Positions 5,455 through 64,000 of a DNA stretch of 64,000 nt are shown here, piece by piece. The position numbers and the translations under genes were made by a program. Source of the DNA: Thermoflexus hugenholtzii JAD2. Its GTDB lineage: Bacteria; Chloroflexota; Dehalococcoidia; UBA2979. The notes under the pieces were generated by a model that did no database searches, was not told where the DNA came from, and was given only the letters and a program-made list of their open reading frames with translations. The DNA lies in NCBI GenBank assembly GCA_945903275.1, contig CAMDNW010000008.1, positions 5,895 to 69,894 on the forward strand. Reading direction: 5' to 3'. Each line of letters begins with the position of its first letter. Position 1 is the stretch's first letter.

Positions 5455-5933
5455 CGGTCGCCATGTACCCAGGCCGCTTCGACCCGGTCACGAACGGCCA
5501 CATGGACATTGTCCGGCGGGCGACCGAGATCTTCGAATCGGTGGTGGTCGCCGTCTTCGAGACGAAGTCGACGCTGTTTACCACCGAAGAGCGCATCAGC
5601 CTGTTCCGCGAAGCGATAGCGGAGGCAGAGATACCGAACGTCCGCGTGCTCTCACTCAGCGGCCTGACGGTGAACAAAGCACATGAAGAGGGCGCGCATG
5701 TACTGGTGCGCGGGCTGCGCGCAATCACCGACTTCTCAGTCGAGTTCGACATGGCGATGATGAACGCCAAGATGGCGCCGGACATTGAGTCCGTGTACCT
5801 GATGACCGCGCTGGAGCATCTGTTCATCAGCGGCACCCGCATCCGCGAGGTCGCCGCACTTGGCTACAACATCGACGCCCTCGTCCCCATGGCCGTCGCC
5901 GCCGCGCTGAAGGTGAAGTTCAACCACTCGTAG
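5451..5933 (+). CDS. coaD: phosphopantetheine adenylyltransferase
   Basis: MTVAMYPGRFDPVTNGHMDIVRRA... (T/HxGH nucleotidyltransferase motif). The ATG at 5451 overlaps the rsmD TGA (ATGA). About 160 aa. The longer track ORF from 5274 overlaps rsmD and is rejected. Confidence 0.92.
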   Translation: MTVAMYPGRFDPVTNGHMDIVRRATEIFESVVVAVFETKSTLFTTEERISLFREAIAEAEIPNVRVLSLSGLTVNKAHEEGAHVLVRGLRAITDFSVEFDMAMMNAKMAPDIESVYLMTALEHLFISGTRIREVAALGYNIDALVPMAVAAALKVKFNHS

Positions 5934-50686: not shown

Positions 50687-51484
50687 CTACCCGATCACCT
50701 CGAGCAGCCGGAACTCGAGCGCACCCGACGGCGCTTCGGCGGTCACCTCGTCGCCGGCGCTGCGGTTGATCACGGCCTTGCCGACGGGCGATTCGATCGA
50801 GATTTTGCTGTTCGAGGGATCCACCTCATTCGGGCTGACCAGGTGGAAGGTCTGCTCCTTGCCGTTTTTCAGGTTGAGCAACCGGATCGTGGAACCCACA
50901 TTCGCACGGCCTGCCTTCGAGTCGGCATCAATGATCACCGCGTGACGTAACTGGTACTCAATCTGCCGGATGTGCGCCTCGAGCTTGCCTTGCTCATCGC
51001 GTGCGGCATCCAATGGCGCATTCTCACGGAAGTCCTTGTCCGCCATTGCCGTACGCAATGCTTCCGCGATCACTGGACGCGTCGCCTTCAACTCTTCCAG
51101 TTCTTTTTCGAGAGCCGCAAGACCATCGATCGTCACGAAGTACGGGTCACCGTCGATCACCGCACCGGGCACCCGCCGCCCAGTAGCCCCCGTGAACCGC
51201 AGGAACGGCACCAGATCCTCATCCAGAAATGCGACGCGCGCCGAGTGCGCCAGGAACGCCCGCACCGGCTCCAGCGACTTCAGCTCCACCTCGTTGGGCA
51301 GGCGCTTCCGTTCAGCAGCCGCATACTGGCCCACGTCCGCACCCGTCAGTTCACTCAACTGCCGGTCACGCCCGAACCACTCAATGAAGCGCTCCACCCC
51401 TTCGCGGTCATCGCGGGCGCGCTCCGGCTCTATGCCCGCGAGGAAATGCGCCACTGCTTCCGCTGCCGTCTTGTTCTCTACCAA
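50687..51484 (-). CDS. GreA/GreB-family factor with ~110-aa N-terminal extension
   Basis: The C-terminal ~155 aa are TIDGLAALEKELEELKATRPVIAEALRTAMADKDFRENAPLDAARDEQGKLEAHIRQIEYQL...GSTIRLLNLKNGKEQTFHLVSP...ISIESPVGKAVINRSAGDEV, i.e. a GreA coiled coil plus globular domain. The N-terminal 110 aa are unrelated to GreA. Confidence 0.8.
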   Translation of the reverse strand: MVENKTAAEAVAHFLAGIEPERARDDREGVERFIEWFGRDRQLSELTGADVGQYAAAERKRLPNEVELKSLEPVRAFLAHSARVAFLDEDLVPFLRFTGATGRRVPGAVIDGDPYFVTIDGLAALEKELEELKATRPVIAEALRTAMADKDFRENAPLDAARDEQGKLEAHIRQIEYQLRHAVIIDADSKAGRANVGSTIRLLNLKNGKEQTFHLVSPNEVDPSNSKISIESPVGKAVINRSAGDEVTAEAPSGALEFRLLEVIG

Positions 51485-51601
51485 CGCACAGCCCTCCGCG
51501 CCCCCTGGGTCAGCCGACGCTGACGCGGGAACGCTGACTCGATACCAACCTGCGTCGGTGTTAGATGATGTATGTCTAGTCTAGGAGATCGCTGGCCGCC
51601 G

Positions 51602-56657: not shown

Positions 56658-57675
56658 TCCTCGCTACGCCGTCGAGGCAAGCGGCGCCCGCAGGCGCTTC
56701 GCCGATGGCGGCGTCGACGATCTAACGCTCACGGTGCAACCAGGCGAACTATTTGCGCTGCTCGGGCCATCCGGCTCGGGCAAAACGACCTCGCTCCGCC
56801 TGATCGCGGGCTTCGAGCGACCCGACGCTGGCTCCCTCCGGCTCTGGGACGATGTCGTCGCAGACGCGGCACATTTTGTCCCGCCTGAGCGCCGGGGCGT
56901 CGGCATGGTCTTTCAGGACTACGCCCTCTTTCCGCACATGTCCGTCGCCGAGAACGTTGCCTATGGTCTCCCCCACGCCGCCGGCCGCCGCACGCGCGTC
57001 GCCGAGGCGCTCGACCTCGTCGGCCTCACTGGCTTCGAGGATCGGTCGGTGCACGATCTCTCCGGCGGCGAACAGCAGCGCGTTGCACTCGCCCGTGCGC
57101 TCGCTCCCGGGCCACGGCTGTTGCTGCTTGATGAACCGTTCTCAAACCTCGACGCCGCCCTACGCAGCCGGATGCGCGCCGAGGTGCGTGAGATCATGAA
57201 GCGCGCTGGAACCACCGCCATCCTGGTGACCCACGATCAGGAAGAGGCGCTCTCCGTCGCCGACCGCATCGCCTTCATGTGGCGTGGCCGGGTCGAACAG
57301 ATCGGGCCACCGGACGAGGTCTACACGCACCCCGCCACGTTGCACGTCGCCACCAGCATTGGTGACGCCAACATCCTCCGCCTGCCCGTTGCCAATGGCC
57401 TTGTTCACACCGTCTTCGGCAGTTTTGAGGCGCCAAGCGGCACAGCGGAGTGTGTGCTCGTGCTCCGTCCTGAGGACATTCAGGTGCTCCCAGGCGGCGT
57501 TGCTGGCCAAGTCATCGGCCGCGAATACTTCGGCCACGATCAAGTGTTGCGTGTCCACCTCGTCGATGGCACCGAGCTGCGCGTCCGCGTCGGCGCGCAC
57601 GAGCGACTAGGCGCAGCAGGGCCAATCGTCCTTGGCCTCCGCCGCAACCCGGCGATCTTCGCCACGGAAGATTGA
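56650..57675 (+). CDS. ABC transporter ATP-binding protein (FbpC/PotA-like)
   Basis: GPSGSGKTTSL, LSGGEQQRVALARAL and LLLDEPFSNLD. The GTG at 56650 overlaps the permease end. Confidence 0.9.
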   Translation: MTSPRYAVEASGARRRFADGGVDDLTLTVQPGELFALLGPSGSGKTTSLRLIAGFERPDAGSLRLWDDVVADAAHFVPPERRGVGMVFQDYALFPHMSVAENVAYGLPHAAGRRTRVAEALDLVGLTGFEDRSVHDLSGGEQQRVALARALAPGPRLLLLDEPFSNLDAALRSRMRAEVREIMKRAGTTAILVTHDQEEALSVADRIAFMWRGRVEQIGPPDEVYTHPATLHVATSIGDANILRLPVANGLVHTVFGSFEAPSGTAECVLVLRPEDIQVLPGGVAGQVIGREYFGHDQVLRVHLVDGTELRVRVGAHERLGAAGPIVLGLRRNPAIFATED

Positions 57676-57685
57676 CCGTCACGAT

Positions 57686-58447
57686 CTAGCGCAGCAGCAG
57701 CACCGTCGCGACCACCAGTCCGTATCCCACAATCAACCAGCGCAGGATTCGAGGATCCCAGTGCCGAGCCACTCGCACCCCGAAGTAGCCGCCAGTCACC
57801 GAACCTACCGCCATGAACGCCGCCACGCTCCATGCCACCGGCGCAAGGATCGCGAAGCAGACCAACGCTACGAAGTTGATCACCAGCGCCAACATCCCCT
57901 TGAGCGCGTTCGAGTGATGCAGCGTATCTGGCGCGACCACGCTCAGCACCGCCAGCATCATGATACCGATGCCCGCGCCGAAATACCCACCGTACACAGC
58001 GATCGCGAAGATGCTGAGGTGCGCCACGATCGGCACCTGTGTCACATCCGCTGAAATAAACCGCATTGATTGCGTCAGCTGCGTCAACCGGCTTTGCGCG
58101 GCAAGCAGCCCGCACGCGAAATAGATTAAGAACGGCACTACAGCATTGAAGGCGCTCTGCGGTGTCGACAGCAGTAGCAGCGCACCCACCAGCGCGCCCA
58201 GCACGCTCGGCGCGAACAGCAACCATAGCCGTCGCTTCCGCTCGCCAAGTTCTTGCCGGTACGCGAGCGAACCGCCCACCGATCCCGGCCAGATCGCCAC
58301 CGTATTCGTGATGTTTGCCACTTTGGCGTCGAACCCGGCCGCCATCAACGCCGGAAAACTGAGTAGCGTCCCGCCGCCCGCCACGGCGTTGATCGCCCCC
58401 GCGCACATCGAAACCGCTGTCAGAACGACTATCTGCAAGGCATCCAT
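57686..58447 (-). CDS. TauE/SafE (DUF81) family anion exporter
   Basis: SMCAGAINAVAGGGTLLSFPALM...YGGYFGAGIGIMML. Confidence 0.82.
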   Translation of the reverse strand: MDALQIVVLTAVSMCAGAINAVAGGGTLLSFPALMAAGFDAKVANITNTVAIWPGSVGGSLAYRQELGERKRRLWLLFAPSVLGALVGALLLLSTPQSAFNAVVPFLIYFACGLLAAQSRLTQLTQSMRFISADVTQVPIVAHLSIFAIAVYGGYFGAGIGIMMLAVLSVVAPDTLHHSNALKGMLALVINFVALVCFAILAPVAWSVAAFMAVGSVTGGYFGVRVARHWDPRILRWLIVGYGLVVATVLLLR

Positions 58448-58584
58448 CTGCCTATGGTCGCCGATACTCTAACCCACGAGCAAGACTGGCCCTACGCCTC
58501 CTCACAACCTGCTGGTTGTTGGCACGCTCACCCTCGCTTACGATGACACACGTACTTCCCAGTACCCTCGCGCTGTCCGCTCGT

Positions 58585-58660
58585 GGGCCTGTAGCTCAGC
58601 TGGGAGAGCATCTGACTGGCAGTCAGAAGGTCAGCGGTTCGATCCCGCTCAGGTCCACCA
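58585..58660 (+). tRNA. tRNA-Ala (anticodon GGC), CCA encoded
   Basis: Manual cloverleaf: acceptor GGGCCTG/CAGGTCC with the G3:U70 pair, D arm GCTC..GAGC, anticodon stem TCTGA/TCAGA with loop CTGGCAG, T arm AGCGG-TTCGATC-CCGCT, then ACCA. Confidence 0.92.
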
Positions 58661-58669
58661 AACTTACAC

Positions 58670-59416
58670 TCACCCCAGTAACACCCGCCCGGCACCCCAC
58701 GCGGCAAACGCCGAGGTGACGGCGAGCAGCAGCATCGACAGCAAGCCAAACCATCGCTCGGCGAGTCGAGGCCGCAACACCCGCCCAAGCAGGATGCCAG
58801 CGGCGAGCGCGGGCAGCGCCACGGCGCTGTCGCGTATGACCTGCTCCGTGAACAGGCCAGTCGGCACAGCCATCAGCGTGGCGGGGACGCCTAGCCAGAA
58901 GAAGTACGCGTAGAGCCGTCCGCGAATCCGCTCCGAGCCGCCGCCCACCCAGTGCTGGTACAACACCACCGGTGGGCCGCCCATCGAGATCGCTCCCCGC
59001 ACCACGCCGCCGATTAGCCCAACGATGCCTTGCCGCACCGGCAGGTCGAGGCGTGCCGGCGTGTCGTGAGCGCTCCGCGACGCCAGCGTCGCCGCCGCAC
59101 TCACAAACACCGCCGCCGCGACCAGCAGCCGGAGCACGGTCTCATCTACGCGCAGCAGGATTAGAATGCCCAGCGGCGTACCGATCAGCGCGCCCGCCAC
59201 GAGCGGCCCGATCGAGCGCAGCGAGGCACGTGGCCGGTGCTCGACGTACAGGCCCGATCCCATCACCGTCCCGAGGATCAGCGACATCGCCACAGCATGC
59301 CGAGGCGCCACAATCAACGCTGCGACCGGCACAAAGATCGGCGCGAACCCGAAGCCAAGCACCGCCTCGATCAGCGTGCCCACAAACACCGTCGCGACGA
59401 GTGCCCCAGTCTCCAT
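58670..59416 (-). CDS. TauE/SafE (DUF81) family membrane protein, second paralogue
   Basis: 248 aa, polytopic. LIEAVLGFGFAPIFVP...GAISMGGPPVVLY. Confidence 0.78.
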   Translation of the reverse strand: METGALVATVFVGTLIEAVLGFGFAPIFVPVAALIVAPRHAVAMSLILGTVMGSGLYVEHRPRASLRSIGPLVAGALIGTPLGILILLRVDETVLRLLVAAAVFVSAAATLASRSAHDTPARLDLPVRQGIVGLIGGVVRGAISMGGPPVVLYQHWVGGGSERIRGRLYAYFFWLGVPATLMAVPTGLFTEQVIRDSAVALPALAAGILLGRVLRPRLAERWFGLLSMLLLAVTSAFAAWGAGRVLLG

Positions 59417-59458: not shown

Positions 59459-60895
59459 CTACTTGGCGCTTACGACTCGCAGCCCGTGCACGCGCTGGAA
59501 GCGCGTCGCCACCCGCTCGCCGTCGCGCGTCCCGGGGAGCGTGGCATGCACGACCACGGTGTCGTCCAGCCGCTCGCAGCGCACCTCGCCGGCCTCATCC
59601 GCTCCGGCCCGCTGCGCGATCAGGTCAGCCAGCGCCAGCACGGCCGAGGCACGTGCAGTGAATCGCTGGTCGTCACGCCGCAGCAGCGGTGTATACGCAG
59701 TCAGATCGTGCTTCTCGTCCTCAGTCTGTCCCACGATCGCGGCGATCAGTGCGTGGTCGCGGTGCGAAAACCCCGCGAGCCCGTGGCTGAAGATAAGTTC
59801 TTCGGTGTGCCGGTGGTAGCTGTAGTAGTCAATCTGCCGCCCGAGGTCGAGCAGCGCCGCCGCGGCCGCAAGCGCCGTTCCCGCCTCGGCTGGCCCGGCA
59901 TCGAGGCCCGCCGCCTGCGCGAGCACGGTCGCGATGCGGGCACGCCGGAACCCGATCTCGATCCGTGCAGGTACGAATCGCTCAAGCGCCCCGCGGATCG
60001 CCTCCGCACGCACCTCGGCTGCGGCTGGCAGCGTCTCCGCACACGCGGCAAGCGCGATACCCTCACGCAGCCCTTGCCCTGACACCAGGATCGCAGGGGC
60101 CGCCAGCGACTCCACAATCACCTGCGTCGCCAGTGCGCCGGCCACGATGATGTCCGCGCGATCCTCATTCAGCCCCTTGATCGCCGTCCGCTGCGCCAGT
60201 GGCCGCGCACGCACAAGGTCACCGACGGCGGCGAGGCGTGTCGCGGTCAGTTCGTAGCCGTGCATCCGCGGCAGCGGATACGCCCGGCGCGAGCGGTCGA
60301 TCTTCGCAAGGTTGCGGATCGTCCCGCCGGTGCCGACCAGTTGCTCGTCGTCACCCAGCACCGGGATCGCCGCTGCCGCCATCTGGTCAGCGACGTACTT
60401 ACGGATCGCGCGTAACTCCCGCGTCGATGGCTGATCGCCAGGCAGGAACTGTTCCGTCAGCCGCAGCGCGCCCAGAGGCAGCGTCCACGCCGCTACCGGC
60501 TCACGGTCGCGGAAGCGGGCGATCTGGGCGCTGCCGCCACCGACATCCAGCACCATGCCACTGTCCACCGGCAGGCTGTGGATCGCGCCGATCATCGCCA
60601 GCCCCGCCTCTTCCTGTCCGCTCACCACCCGCAACGCGATGCCTGTCTGCTCGTACACGCGGGCGAGCAAATCGGCGGCGTTCGTGGCGTTGCGCACCGC
60701 CGCCGTCGCCACGCCTACGATCTCATCCGCTCCAGCGTGCAATGCGATCGACCGGAAGTCATTCAACAGGGCAGCGACGTACTCGATCACCTCATCGGTG
60801 AATTGGCCGCTTGCCTGCACCTCGTGCTGGAGTCGCGGGACATCGCGCGCCTCATCGACAACTTCGAGGTAACCGTTGCCATCTACATCGATCAC
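59459..60895 (-). CDS. ppx: exopolyphosphatase, Ppx/GppA family (coordinates from the first canonical start; the conserved N-terminus extends to 60982)
   Basis: LDVGGGSAQIARF, GTGGTIRNLAK and a C-terminal HD-like region. The upstream in-frame codons encode RRIAAIDVGSNSIRVAV with no ATG/GTG/TTG (see findings). Confidence 0.85.
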   Translation of the reverse strand: MIDVDGNGYLEVVDEARDVPRLQHEVQASGQFTDEVIEYVAALLNDFRSIALHAGADEIVGVATAAVRNATNAADLLARVYEQTGIALRVVSGQEEAGLAMIGAIHSLPVDSGMVLDVGGGSAQIARFRDREPVAAWTLPLGALRLTEQFLPGDQPSTRELRAIRKYVADQMAAAAIPVLGDDEQLVGTGGTIRNLAKIDRSRRAYPLPRMHGYELTATRLAAVGDLVRARPLAQRTAIKGLNEDRADIIVAGALATQVIVESLAAPAILVSGQGLREGIALAACAETLPAAAEVRAEAIRGALERFVPARIEIGFRRARIATVLAQAAGLDAGPAEAGTALAAAAALLDLGRQIDYYSYHRHTEELIFSHGLAGFSHRDHALIAAIVGQTEDEKHDLTAYTPLLRRDDQRFTARASAVLALADLIAQRAGADEAGEVRCERLDDTVVVHATLPGTRDGERVATRFQRVHGLRVVSAK

Positions 60896-60982
60896 CGCTA
60901 CGCGGATCGAATTCGAACCGACATCGATGGCGGCAATACGCCTGCGCCTGTCTTGTGCGTGTCTCGTACAGCCCTCCCCGCG

Positions 60983-62707
60983 CTAGATGCGGCTTCGCCA
61001 GCGGCGATAGAGCCGCCACAGCGGTGTCAGTGGCGTCAGCGATTCCCGCTGCGCCGGTGACGCTGTCACAGCATTCCGGGCGCGACGCGGGGTCTTCGGG
61101 CGCGATGGCGCTTTCGGCGGCCTCGGAGGGGCCGGAATCGGGATGACGAAGCGTACCTCGCGCCAGCACCGCCGCACACGCGCGAATGCGCGAGGCCACC
61201 CCGCGCGCGCCGTTGCCATCGCCACCAGCCACCGCTCGGACAGTGCGCCCATCAGCAGCAGCGTGTCCGGCGGCAGTGCATTGCCGCGCTCCTGTGCCAA
61301 GATACGCATCCGCGCGATTGCCATCTCCGCGTCCTGATGCTCGCCCAGCAGGTCCTGCATCCCCCGGACAGCGGCCAGCAGCGCGTCCGCCTGCCGAAAC
61401 ACAGGGACAAACGGCTCCAGCGTGTAACGCAGCCGCTTCCCGCGCACCCGCACAGCGTGGTACTCCACCGCCGGGCTCTCTGAGGTCAGCGCCACACCAT
61501 CCCGCCGGAACCGCCGGTACCGCCTGCGGATCGCCAACCGCCCGAACTCGCGCGCTGCCACCGGCATTGTGGCGCTCGCCTGCGGTGGGGGGCCCGTCCG
61601 GAGCGCTTCACCGAACCCGTCCACGAGCATGGCGAAGGCGTCGCTGTCGAGCGCGTCGATGAGCCGCGCGCGCGACGCGACCCGTGACTCGTCTACGATG
61701 CCGATCAGCGGCCCCACCGCCGTGCTGTGTTCCCAGTCCGCGCCCGCCTGGAGCACGTGGAGCGTTTCCAGTTGCACGTCCATGTCGCGCACTTCACCGA
61801 GCGCCGCCGCGACCCACCGGAACTCGTCCCGCCACCGCACCATCGCCTCGGGCAGCGCAGGTGCGAAAGAACTCAGCATGGCGCGCAGCCGCCGGGTGGC
61901 CACCCGCATCTGGTGCAGCACCTCGGTGTCCTCGCCGAGCCGCGTCCCGGACTCGTGCCGCGCGAACTCCGCGAACACCCGCCGCAATACCGCGTATGCG
62001 TACGCGTCTACCGGCCCATCCGCGGATGCCTCCGTCTCACCGAAGGCTGAGCCTGCCTCTGGCGTGAGCGCCGACGCGTGTAGCCCCGACTCAAACTTCG
62101 AGGCGGTCGCTGGCGCGAGTCCGCAGGCTGCCTGCATCGCCTCGATGAACGAGCCTGCCTGAGCGAGTGCGCCCGGACGATCTTCCTCGACCTCGACGCG
62201 CCGGAGGGATTCACCCGCCGCTTCGCTGCCGATGCGTGCGTCGTCCAGCGTGAGCGTCGCCAGCGTGACCCCGCCCCGCACAAGCGCGAACGGCCGCCGC
62301 TGCGTCTCCGCGGTAAACAGCGGCCTCAAGACTCTGCGCGTACCAAGCATCAGCCGCAGCCGCTCCGTCACCGGCCCGCCGGCCAGCAGCACGTCAGCAT
62401 CTGGCGAGTCGAGCGGCTGGTTGATTTCCGTGCGGACGCGCGCGTTACCCTCGGTCGTGCCGAACGCCTTCAAGGTCGCCTCGGCGGTGTCGCCGACACG
62501 GCGCACTCGCAGCGTGTAGCGAGCGCGGTAGACCGCCCAGTCCTCGGTGTCGAAGTAGGTATCGATGTTGACGCGTTCGCGCCCTGTTGCGATCTGTACG
62601 GGCGCGTGCGCCGGCTGGCTGGCTAGCCACCGGGCCACAGCCTCAAGGTCGGGCGCATCGAACTGCTGCTCCACCTCGGTCGAGGCGCCAGCCGGCCCCA
62701 TCGTCAT
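60983..62707 (-). CDS. CYTH (triphosphate tunnel metalloenzyme) - CHAD domain protein
   Basis: EVEQQFDAPD...NIDTYFDTEDW...YTLRVR (CYTH), then LHQMRVATRRLRAMLSSF...VRVRGKRLRYTLE (CHAD). The ATG at 62707 overlaps the ppk TGA (ATGA). The track start at 62806 overlaps ppk. Confidence 0.85.
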   Translation of the reverse strand: MTMGPAGASTEVEQQFDAPDLEAVARWLASQPAHAPVQIATGRERVNIDTYFDTEDWAVYRARYTLRVRRVGDTAEATLKAFGTTEGNARVRTEINQPLDSPDADVLLAGGPVTERLRLMLGTRRVLRPLFTAETQRRPFALVRGGVTLATLTLDDARIGSEAAGESLRRVEVEEDRPGALAQAGSFIEAMQAACGLAPATASKFESGLHASALTPEAGSAFGETEASADGPVDAYAYAVLRRVFAEFARHESGTRLGEDTEVLHQMRVATRRLRAMLSSFAPALPEAMVRWRDEFRWVAAALGEVRDMDVQLETLHVLQAGADWEHSTAVGPLIGIVDESRVASRARLIDALDSDAFAMLVDGFGEALRTGPPPQASATMPVAAREFGRLAIRRRYRRFRRDGVALTSESPAVEYHAVRVRGKRLRYTLEPFVPVFRQADALLAAVRGMQDLLGEHQDAEMAIARMRILAQERGNALPPDTLLLMGALSERWLVAMATARAGWPRAFARVRRCWREVRFVIPIPAPPRPPKAPSRPKTPRRARNAVTASPAQRESLTPLTPLWRLYRRWRSRI

Positions 62708-64000
62708 CGCGACAGGTCGAACGGCGCGCGGTCGAGCAAGATCGCGTGGATCCCCGGATCCGGCGCCGCCGGGTCGCGCTGCCAGACCGTGTCGTTCAAT
62801 TCCCACGCCTGACGCCGCTCGGCGAGAGACAGGTCGAGCAACTCGCGCAGGTGCGCGGTGAGCGCCGGGTCGCGCACCGGCGTAACGACCTCAATGCGAT
62901 CGTCAAGGTTCCGCTTCATCAGGTCTGCGCTGCCAATGAAGTACTCCGGTTCGCCGCCATTCTCGAAGCAGTATACCCGCGAGTGCTCGAGGAACCGCCC
63001 GATGATGCTGACGACGCGGATGCGCTCGCTTAGCCCCGGCACTCCCGCCCGGAGCCGGCAGATGCCGCGCACAATCAGGTCAACCTGCACCCCGGCCTGG
63101 GACGCCTCGTACAGCAGCCGCGTGAACTCGGCATCCTCCAGTGCGTTCATCTTGAAGATGAGGCGCGCGGGCCGGCCTGCCTGTGCGTGGGCGATTTCCC
63201 GCTGCACTCGTTGCTTCAGTTGCGCGCGCAGGCTCGACGGGGCCACCAGCAGCCGCTTCGTCGCCAACGTATCGGAGAGGCCAGTCAGGTAGTTAAAGAC
63301 CTGGATGATGTCGGCACAGATTTCGCGATCCGCGGTGAACATTCCGAGGTCGGTGTACACGCGCGCCGTGCGCGAGTTGTAGTTCCCGGTACCGATGTGC
63401 GCGAACGTGCGCACGCCCTGCACATCGTCGCGGACGACAAGGCAGATCTTGCTGTGTATCTTCCGTTGTGGGTTGCCGTACGCGACGTGTACCCCTGCCT
63501 CTTCCAGCCGCCGCGCCCACTCGATGTTGTTCGCCTCGTCGGCGCGCGCACTCAACTCCACCAGCACTGCCACCTGCTTACCGCGCGTCGCGGCATCGAT
63601 CAGCGCCTCCAAGATCGGCGAGTCGGGCGATGTGCGATACATCGCCTGCTTGATCGCCAGCACCGACGGGTCTTCCGCCGCCTCGCGCACGAAGCGCACT
63701 ACGGTCGCGTCGAACGACTCGTAGGGGTGGTGCACCAATAGGTCGTTCCGCTGGATCGCCGAGAACAGCGCGCCGCGCCCACTCACCCGCCGGAACGTCT
63801 GCGGCGTCGCTGGCAGGTACGGTTGATAGGCTAGGTCTGGCATCTGCAGATTCGCGATCTCTGTCATGTTCGCAAGGCCGAGCGGCCCGCGCGCCGTGAC
63901 CACATCCGCTGGTTCCAGCCCCAATTCGTCCAGCAACAACGGCAGCCGGACCGGCGGCAACTCACCATCCACCTCCACCGACACCGCCGAGGCGAACCGC
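62704..64000 (-). CDS. ppk: polyphosphate kinase 1 (partial; N-terminus beyond the right edge)
   Basis: VHHPYESFDATVVRFVREAAEDPSVLAIKQAMYRTSPDSPILEALIDAA..GKQV.VLVELSARADEANNIEWARRLEEAGVHVAYG...HIGTGNYN. The frame stays open to the window edge. Confidence 0.92.
   Translation of the reverse strand, partial: RFASAVSVEVDGELPPVRLPLLLDELGLEPADVVTARGPLGLANMTEIANLQMPDLAYQPYLPATPQTFRRVSGRGALFSAIQRNDLLVHHPYESFDATVVRFVREAAEDPSVLAIKQAMYRTSPDSPILEALIDAATRGKQVAVLVELSARADEANNIEWARRLEEAGVHVAYGNPQRKIHSKICLVVRDDVQGVRTFAHIGTGNYNSRTARVYTDLGMFTADREICADIIQVFNYLTGLSDTLATKRLLVAPSSLRAQLKQRVQREIAHAQAGRPARLIFKMNALEDAEFTRLLYEASQAGVQVDLIVRGICRLRAGVPGLSERIRVVSIIGRFLEHSRVYCFENGGEPEYFIGSADLMKRNLDDRIEVVTPVRDPALTAHLRELLDLSLAERRQAWELNDTVWQRDPAAPDPGIHAILLDRAPFDLSR

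Follow-up and report, generated by a model that had tools for sequence, protein, structure and literature searches.

The subject of this report is the start of the exopolyphosphatase gene (ppx) in a stretch of 64,000 nucleotides (nt) from Thermoflexus hugenholtzii JAD2 (contig CAMDNW010000008.1), hereafter the window, whose minus strand carries a polyphosphate (polyP) operon in the order ppk, CYTH-CHAD, ppx, followed by two TauE/SafE genes. Comparison with related loci indicates that the window's lineage has lost the canonical ppx start codon. Within this operon CYTH-CHAD and ppx stand as distinct genes, presumably co-transcribed, and, as the DNA reads, a full-length and fold-competent Ppx would be made in this lineage only by initiation at a near-cognate codon. 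We put the chances at about even that weak initiation of this kind does supply Ppx, helped by a Shine-Dalgarno (SD)-like site and by coupling to the termination of CHAD translation. The serious rival is a gene recently silenced by the same loss.

The CYTH-CHAD open reading frame (ORF) ends ...RRWRSRI-TAG at 60985..60983 on the minus strand, and ppx follows in the same frame. The 29 codons after the TAG, RGEGCTRHAQDRRRRIAAIDVGSNSIRVAV (60982..60896, minus strand), contain no ATG, GTG or TTG, and IAAIDVGSNS, which holds the family's DxGSNS motif, is encoded at 60937..60908, upstream of every such codon of ppx. Reading of the minus strand confirmed the junction as it stood in the original prediction, including the TAG, the 29 codons, the GTG at 60895, the ACG and the ATT. 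The elements of the junction are as follows, D-8 and D-4 being codon positions relative to the motif Asp.

60983..60985, minus strand: TAG, genuine stop of CYTH-CHAD, in the ppx frame by coincidence.
60972..60979, minus strand: SD-like GGGGAGGG, beginning 3 nt past the TAG, with its GGAGG core at 60977..60973.
60965..60967, minus strand: in-frame ACG, 5 nt past the GGAGG core and 14 codons before the motif Asp, which would give a Ppx of 502 amino acids (aa).
60947..60949, minus strand: AGG at D-8, where the clade's ppx ATG sits; the ATG of the syntenic relative L171 aligns with this AGG.
60935..60937, minus strand: in-frame ATT at D-4, 34 nt from GGGGAGGG, which would give a 492-aa Ppx beginning MAAIDVGSNS.
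60908..60925, minus strand: DVGSNS, which forms the phosphate-1/Mg2+-binding loop in the ASKHA fold and precedes the first canonical start.
60893..60895, minus strand: GTG, the first canonical start, giving the 478-aa product of the gene callers; it lies inside strand beta2, at residue 30.

A search of all three frames revealed no alternative ORF that could supply a ppx start. A hidden frameshift, or a wrongly placed end of CHAD, was considered and rejected, as codon-position analysis shows G+C content at third positions (GC3) to be highest in the CHAD/ppx frame throughout.

Canonical starts are the rule among relatives. We surveyed the interval from the preceding in-frame stop to the motif Asp at 75 genome loci, 73 metagenome loci and 7 individually fetched loci (~155 in total), and found a canonical start at every Ppx locus examined but one. 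Startless ppx genes are confined to two lineages among these loci, the window's near-clonal population and the unrelated contig L097, a distribution that points to lineage-specific start loss. Starts lie mostly at D-8 or D-9 (the Asp is at position 8-9 in 50 of the 120 homologues listed), the N-terminus of the closest clade reads M-x-x-P-V-A-A-I-D, and a few family members are called with N-termini as short as that of the ATT-start form. The original prediction had left undecided whether orthologous ppk-CHAD-ppx loci hold a fused ORF or a canonical start before the DxGSNS motif; they hold the latter, and no fused ORF was found. To judge from this comparison, the window's lineage has lost its canonical ppx start, probably through a single base change, either ATG to ACG at 60967 or ATG to AGG at D-8; the ancestral start may have stood where the AGG is now, at 60949..60947. 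Three further candidates for startless genes (P0005/L085, P0310/L168 and P0288/L170) were rejected as gene-caller artefacts, since a canonical ATG or GTG precedes the motif in each.

The second startless lineage, L097 (JGI Ga0335082_10077821, 354-401), encodes an unrelated Ppx of 43% identity with no ATG, GTG or TTG before the motif. Its junction reads TGA-GGG-TGG-GAG-GGT-CTC-ATT-CCG: a GGGAGG, then 5 nt, then an ATT at D-9. As sequenced, this single contig, which stands without independent confirmation, presents an independent combination of SD site and near-cognate start within the Ppx family.

The startless allele is real and fixed in the population. The junction is base-identical in 12 sequences (the window, L001, L002 and L173-L181, including the NCBI metagenome-assembled genome (MAG) GCA_947445005.1) except for one single nucleotide polymorphism (SNP), a synonymous GCC to GCG change (Ala) at 60929 in L001, which is the only SNP in the startless segment. 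Since the DNA is metagenome-assembled material, a sequencing or assembly error might be suspected of concealing a canonical start. Behind the 12 sequences, however, stand no fewer than 12 samples and assemblies from three sources (ENA MEGAHIT contigs, Logan and an NCBI MAG), and the sequences agree at every candidate start position yet differ elsewhere; we find such an error scarcely credible. Over ppk-CHAD-ppx the strains diverge by 0-0.8%, and from this near-clonality it follows that the allele, though real and fixed, may be young.

A lone in-frame stop between two ORFs also raises the question of a single protein, and the original prediction had offered two versions of it, neither of which was borne out. 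In the first, the TAG would be read through or suppressed, yielding a 1082-aa CYTH-CHAD-Ppx that serves as the functional Ppx. The shared frame with its single stop fits this, trace near-cognate read-through of UAG occurs in bacteria, and tethering Ppx to CHAD is biochemically sensible, CHAD being a polyP-binding module that is frequent in polyP operons (PMC6537752). Stop usage in the window argues otherwise: TAG ends 29 of the 47 ORFs selected by GC3, a count that includes a few antisense shadows, against 14 for TGA and 4 for TAA. It also ends 22 of the 32 ORFs of at least 250 aa, and ppx itself. TAG is normally the rarest bacterial stop, and its majority in the window is thus unusual (examples at 5933, 6747, 6775, 13794, 19857, 59459 and 60983). 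Being both the commonest stop and that of ppx, TAG must be efficiently read as a stop here and is therefore not generally leaky or reassigned. RNA structure near the TAG, whether as a read-through stimulus or as a means of bringing the SD site close to the ATT, was not significant (fold z = -0.34). An Rfam scan returned no family, and hence no recoding element, besides two tRNAs, and no suppressor tRNA or tRNA reading UAG lies within the 64-kb window.

The C-terminus of the CHAD protein bears on the same question through two features.

~61022..61200, minus strand: disordered Pro/Arg-rich linker of the CHAD protein, before its C-terminal motif.
60986..61021, minus strand: basic-aromatic C-terminal motif of the CHAD protein, LWRLYRRWRSRI, resembling the C-terminal ends of relatives.

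The ~107 residues past the CHAD domain have an off-frame look but are a family feature: relatives carry a Pro/Arg/Ala-rich linker of 50-90 aa and then a short basic-aromatic motif at the very C-terminus, as in RYRLLRLPRFPRKP, QRPLSIFRRFFSRR, LSRMRQLFH and LRAVVRFVLKRRR. The window's ...TPLWRLYRRWRSRI*, directly before the TAG, fits the same pattern, and its 574 aa are ordinary for CYTH-CHAD relatives (520-626 aa; 340-697 aa over all 120 listed). This linker and motif are found across the clade (window 60986-61200, minus strand; proteins P0122-P0159). The motif could form an amphipathic helix that binds granules or membranes; we know of no description of it. Past the TAG, the next 15 codons differ from the corresponding region of relatives, and residues 1-9 of the Ppx product are disordered in an AlphaFold2 model.

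No CHAD-Ppx fusion occurs among the 120 Ppx and 120 CHAD relatives listed, nor among the 150 best cluster representatives retrieved, with Ppx alone as query, from a library of 1.84 billion proteins. CYTH domains are likewise missing from the 120 listed Ppx relatives. In the 150 representatives the Ppx match begins within ~114 residues of the target N-terminus, leaving no long N-terminal extension. The UAG between two domain-bearing ORFs recalls programmed read-through and pyrrolysine systems, but the window differs from these in that UAG is the main stop, recoding structure is lacking and fused homologues are absent. We rate functional read-through as very unlikely.

The second version, in which a recent nonsense mutation at 60985..60983 divided an ancestral CYTH-CHAD-Ppx fusion, draws on the same shared frame and lone stop, and is more improbable still. 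Syntenic relatives have two genes, separated by spacers of 47 nt (P0007), 66 nt (L088) and 122 nt (L171); in L088 and L171, where the DNA was read, CHAD and ppx are in different frames. In many other genomes CHAD is convergent and lies downstream of ppx. Fusions are absent from the relatives listed, and the CHAD motif ends exactly at the stop, as in stand-alone relatives. Because relatives have two spaced genes and no fusions, the shared frame in the window is a one-in-three coincidence and carries no weight: the TAG is the normal stop of the CHAD gene, not the sign of a fused protein.

The annotated GTG start, by contrast with an upstream one, would remove what the enzyme needs. All five full-length database haplotypes (P0001, P0387, P0389, P0390 and P0392) are given as the 478-aa form starting at GTG 60895, the first canonical start, and the Pfam Ppx-GppA model still matches this product. 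That model (PF02541) begins after the motif, query residue 33 corresponding to profile position 4, which is how the truncated call escapes notice. Gene callers also shortened P0005, P0288 and P0310 despite upstream canonical starts.

The AlphaFold2 model of Ppx (mean predicted local distance difference test score 93.4, predicted template modelling score 0.91) places strand beta1 at residues 14-21, the GSNS loop at 22-25 and beta2 at 26-33. A start at residue 30 therefore deletes beta1, the loop and half of beta2, whereas solved Ppx/GppA structures align from query residues 11-16. In the clade alignment, which includes the window, D20, G22, S23, N24 and S25 of the DxGSNS motif are invariant, and E125, D146, E153 and L305-R306-E307-G308 are invariant or nearly so. 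The latter correspond, by motif position and not by direct structural alignment, to the acidic residues E114, D136 and E143 and the REG of the catalytic centre of Deinococcus radiodurans PPX (PMC11234463). In that enzyme D7 binds Mg2+, T10 and N11 bind phosphates of polyP, and D7A strongly lowers activity; the equivalent Asp9 of Helicobacter pylori is reported to be necessary (PMC11234463). Moreover, no SD site precedes the GTG, and the 14 codons upstream of it are the family's most conserved N-terminal block, in frame. On the structural model, the GTG-start form cannot be an active enzyme, and a shortened Ppx that is active or has acquired a new role is highly improbable.

Near-cognate initiation is thus weighed as the route to a full-length Ppx. 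GGAGG precedes the start of several genes of the window by 4-8 nt, from which it follows that the organism uses SD sites, and the 5-nt spacing of the ACG falls within that range. Under the proposed mechanism, ribosomes that terminate CHAD at the TAG would meet GGGGAGGG 3 nt later and would initiate, or re-initiate, with fMet-tRNA at ACG 60967 or ATT 60937. The yield would be ~0.1-3% of that of AUG, leaving Ppx strongly down-tuned relative to Ppk and CHAD, and such a low level may suffice for function.

Between the two codons, the ACG is favoured by position and is one transition away from ATG, and the ATT is favoured by codon identity. Translation table 11 lists ATT, ATC, ATA and CTG as rare starts in addition to the common ones, and ACG is not among its accepted starts. 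The ATT and an ATC, both in frame downstream of the ACG within the startless segment, are therefore weak starts and not non-starts. We tentatively place ACG first, as a possible initiation site, and regard the ATT as a rather doubtful one. Behind a strong ribosome-binding site (RBS) in Escherichia coli, AUU, AUC, AUA and CUG give ~1-2% of the AUG level, and ACG and most other codons ~0.1-1% (10.1101/063800). ACG-initiated GFP in that study carried an N-terminal Met (10.1101/063800).

The nearest precedents are the E. coli genes infC and pcnB, with AUU behind an SD site, whose low expression a weak ppx start would resemble. As in such genes, a conserved N-terminal coding sequence precedes the first ATG, GTG or TTG, and an SD-like site is present; the window differs in that the best-placed codon behind the SD site is ACG and the ATT has none. 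The infC AUU has been conserved between species and acts in regulation, whereas the feature described here is confined to one near-clonal population. Two other observations concern the SD-like sequence. The 10-mer GGAGGGCTGT is common to the ppx junction (60968-60977, minus strand) and to the RBS at 51485-51502 (minus strand) of a gene at 51484..50687, whose TTG start lies 8 nt past GGAGG; this sharing is probably coincidence. A second candidate for SD plus ACG, at 57141..56749 (minus strand), was rejected as an antisense shadow of an ABC-ATPase gene, without Pfam match.

Several points weigh against functional initiation. The SD-like site was called strong in the original prediction, and its position and 5-nt spacing were confirmed, but the motif proved only mildly unusual: GGAGG occurs by chance in ~4-5% of random 45-nt stretches of the same strand, and the window contains 3 copies of the GGGGAGGG octamer against 2.45 expected, which is no enrichment. 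The site is therefore suggestive and not proof. The ATT has no SD site at a usable distance (34 nt), and the ACG mismatches the initiator anticodon at its middle base, AUG to ACG being a standard mutation for knocking down or killing a start. No diverged relative conserves the non-canonical codon, since all use ATG, GTG or TTG with the exception of L097. The startless arrangement is kept only within a near-clonal population, so that long-term selective maintenance is not shown. SNPs of ppx among the strains (3 nonsynonymous, 1 synonymous) are too few to measure selection, with similar ratios in neighbouring genes. Finally, the window's own haplotype carries a substitution in the C-terminal domain.

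59729..59731, minus strand: codon GGA (Gly418) in the window haplotype of ppx; in all 11 other strains the codon is CGG (Arg), and the residue is Arg in all 36 clade relatives as well.

This two-base change, R418G, at a clade-invariant Arg fits relaxed constraint and is found in the window haplotype only.

Some of these points favour the alternative that the start mutation silenced ppx, leaving a pseudogene at its earliest stage, whose intact ORF and SD site have not yet decayed. Such a null allele could have been fixed by drift, by hitch-hiking or because loss of Ppx favours polyP accumulation. A canonical start is missing in 12 of 12 strains, near-clonality allows the change to be very recent, and a gene that has only just died would still keep its SD site for some time. 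The resemblance to known start-loss pseudogenes is clear: a single base change from ATG suffices, the allele is fixed in a clonal lineage whose relatives keep a canonical start, and an otherwise invariant residue is replaced in one strain. The window departs from that pattern in lacking secondary lesions: across the 12 strains, ppx and the junction are free of indels, stops and frameshifts. No invariant residue has changed in the common haplotype, and the SD site and coupling context are retained. At least 46 of the 64 codons yielded detectable protein in E. coli when placed behind a strong RBS (10.1101/063800), and, with GGAGG 5 nt upstream of the ACG and coupling to CHAD, complete silence is unlikely. 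L097, with its independent arrangement in the same family, also speaks against a null allele. We give the silenced gene a substantial minority of our belief. An N-terminally crippled ppx, which the original prediction had listed, stays a serious rival in this form: the start loss is seen, with R418G in one strain, and frameshifts, stops and indels are not.

Non-canonical initiation, also among the options of the original prediction, is the best-supported route to an active Ppx, in view of the SD site with its ACG, the ATT and ATC, the intact ORF and the L097 case. A stronger form of it, that ACG 60967 is a genuine, selected start served by a strong SD site and by termination-reinitiation 15 nt past the CHAD stop, appears unlikely. 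If it were true, Ppx would be kept at no more than about one hundredth of the CHAD and Ppk levels, so that polyP could accumulate; taken with the GGGAGG and ATT of L097, this would suggest that very weak ppx starts have been selected repeatedly.

The operon comprises three genes.

62704..64000, minus strand: ppk (polyphosphate kinase 1), 3' part, with stop TGA at 62706..62704; it continues beyond the window end.
60983..62707, minus strand: CYTH-CHAD, a 574-aa protein with a YgiF-like triphosphate tunnel metalloenzyme (TTM) domain and a polyP-binding CHAD domain, from ATG 62707..62705 to TAG 60985..60983.
59459..60967, minus strand: ppx (Ppx/GppA exopolyphosphatase), proposed coding region from the candidate ACG to TAG 59461..59459, with an intact ORF.

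Matches to Pfam PP_kinase_C_1 and PP_kinase_C identify ppk, and a complete gene of 699 aa is present in L001. The CYTH-CHAD protein matches Pfam CYTH (7.5e-11) and CHAD (1.9e-52), and the 574-aa call recurs in 99%-identical contigs. The ppx product matches Ppx-GppA PF02541 (5.1e-53) and PF21447 (1.8e-07) and, among solved structures, PDB 6pc0 (7e-42), with further matches to 8jgo, 1t6c and 1u6z; its ORF keeps every clade-invariant residue, R418G in the window's strain excepted. The ppk and CYTH-CHAD genes overlap by ATGA, which indicates that the operon uses tight translational coupling. A scan for promoters and terminators around the CHAD-ppx junction found nothing.

The nearest known systems are ppk-ppx of E. 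coli and the YgiF-type CYTH/TTM-CHAD proteins. The order and content of ppk-CHAD-ppx are common to the window and its closest relatives. The window's operon differs from those of relatives in its missing ppx start codon and in its CHAD-ppx spacer, which is 15 nt before the ACG against 47-122 nt. In the closest clade a non-coding block upstream of ppx is conserved (..TAACGTAACCATC..CCCC..GCGGCAGCAGATCGGA..; L085:1095-1205, L086:60-143, L087:130-216). The window, its spacer shrunk to 15 nt, lacks this block, which may be a regulatory site or a promoter.

Downstream of ppx, on the same strand, lie two paralogues of TauE/SafE-family transporters (57686-59416, minus strand), with a tRNA-Ala(GGC) on the opposite strand between them (58585-58660, plus strand); the syntenic relative L171 also has a TauE gene downstream of ppx. 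From ~58950 down to 57500, a region that covers the 3' end of the first TauE gene, the tRNA-Ala and the second TauE gene, the window diverges by 6-24% from the clonal strains L173-L175 and L179. Below 57500 the divergence is again 0.8%, and then 5.6% (57000-57250). The divergent blocks are mosaic recombination tracts from a diverged lineage, beginning ~500 nt downstream of ppx.

Both surviving readings, a non-canonical start and a start-loss allele, are known kinds of event. Neither outcome alters a major concept, and the significance is modest unless ACG initiation is demonstrated, in which case the gene would be a candidate natural ACG start in bacteria. For annotation, ppx is best recorded as having a non-canonical start or as a start-loss pseudogene: the 478-aa database form lacks the catalytic Mg/phosphate loop, and the shortening goes unnoticed in domain scans. 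A dead gene would make this an ordinary pseudogene at an early stage, fixed in a widely sampled population that is Chloroflexota-like to judge from the named homologues, and would predict a polyP-accumulating phenotype. If the weak start is functional, the ppk-CHAD-ppx operon would keep the degrading enzyme very scarce relative to the synthesising one through the start codon alone.

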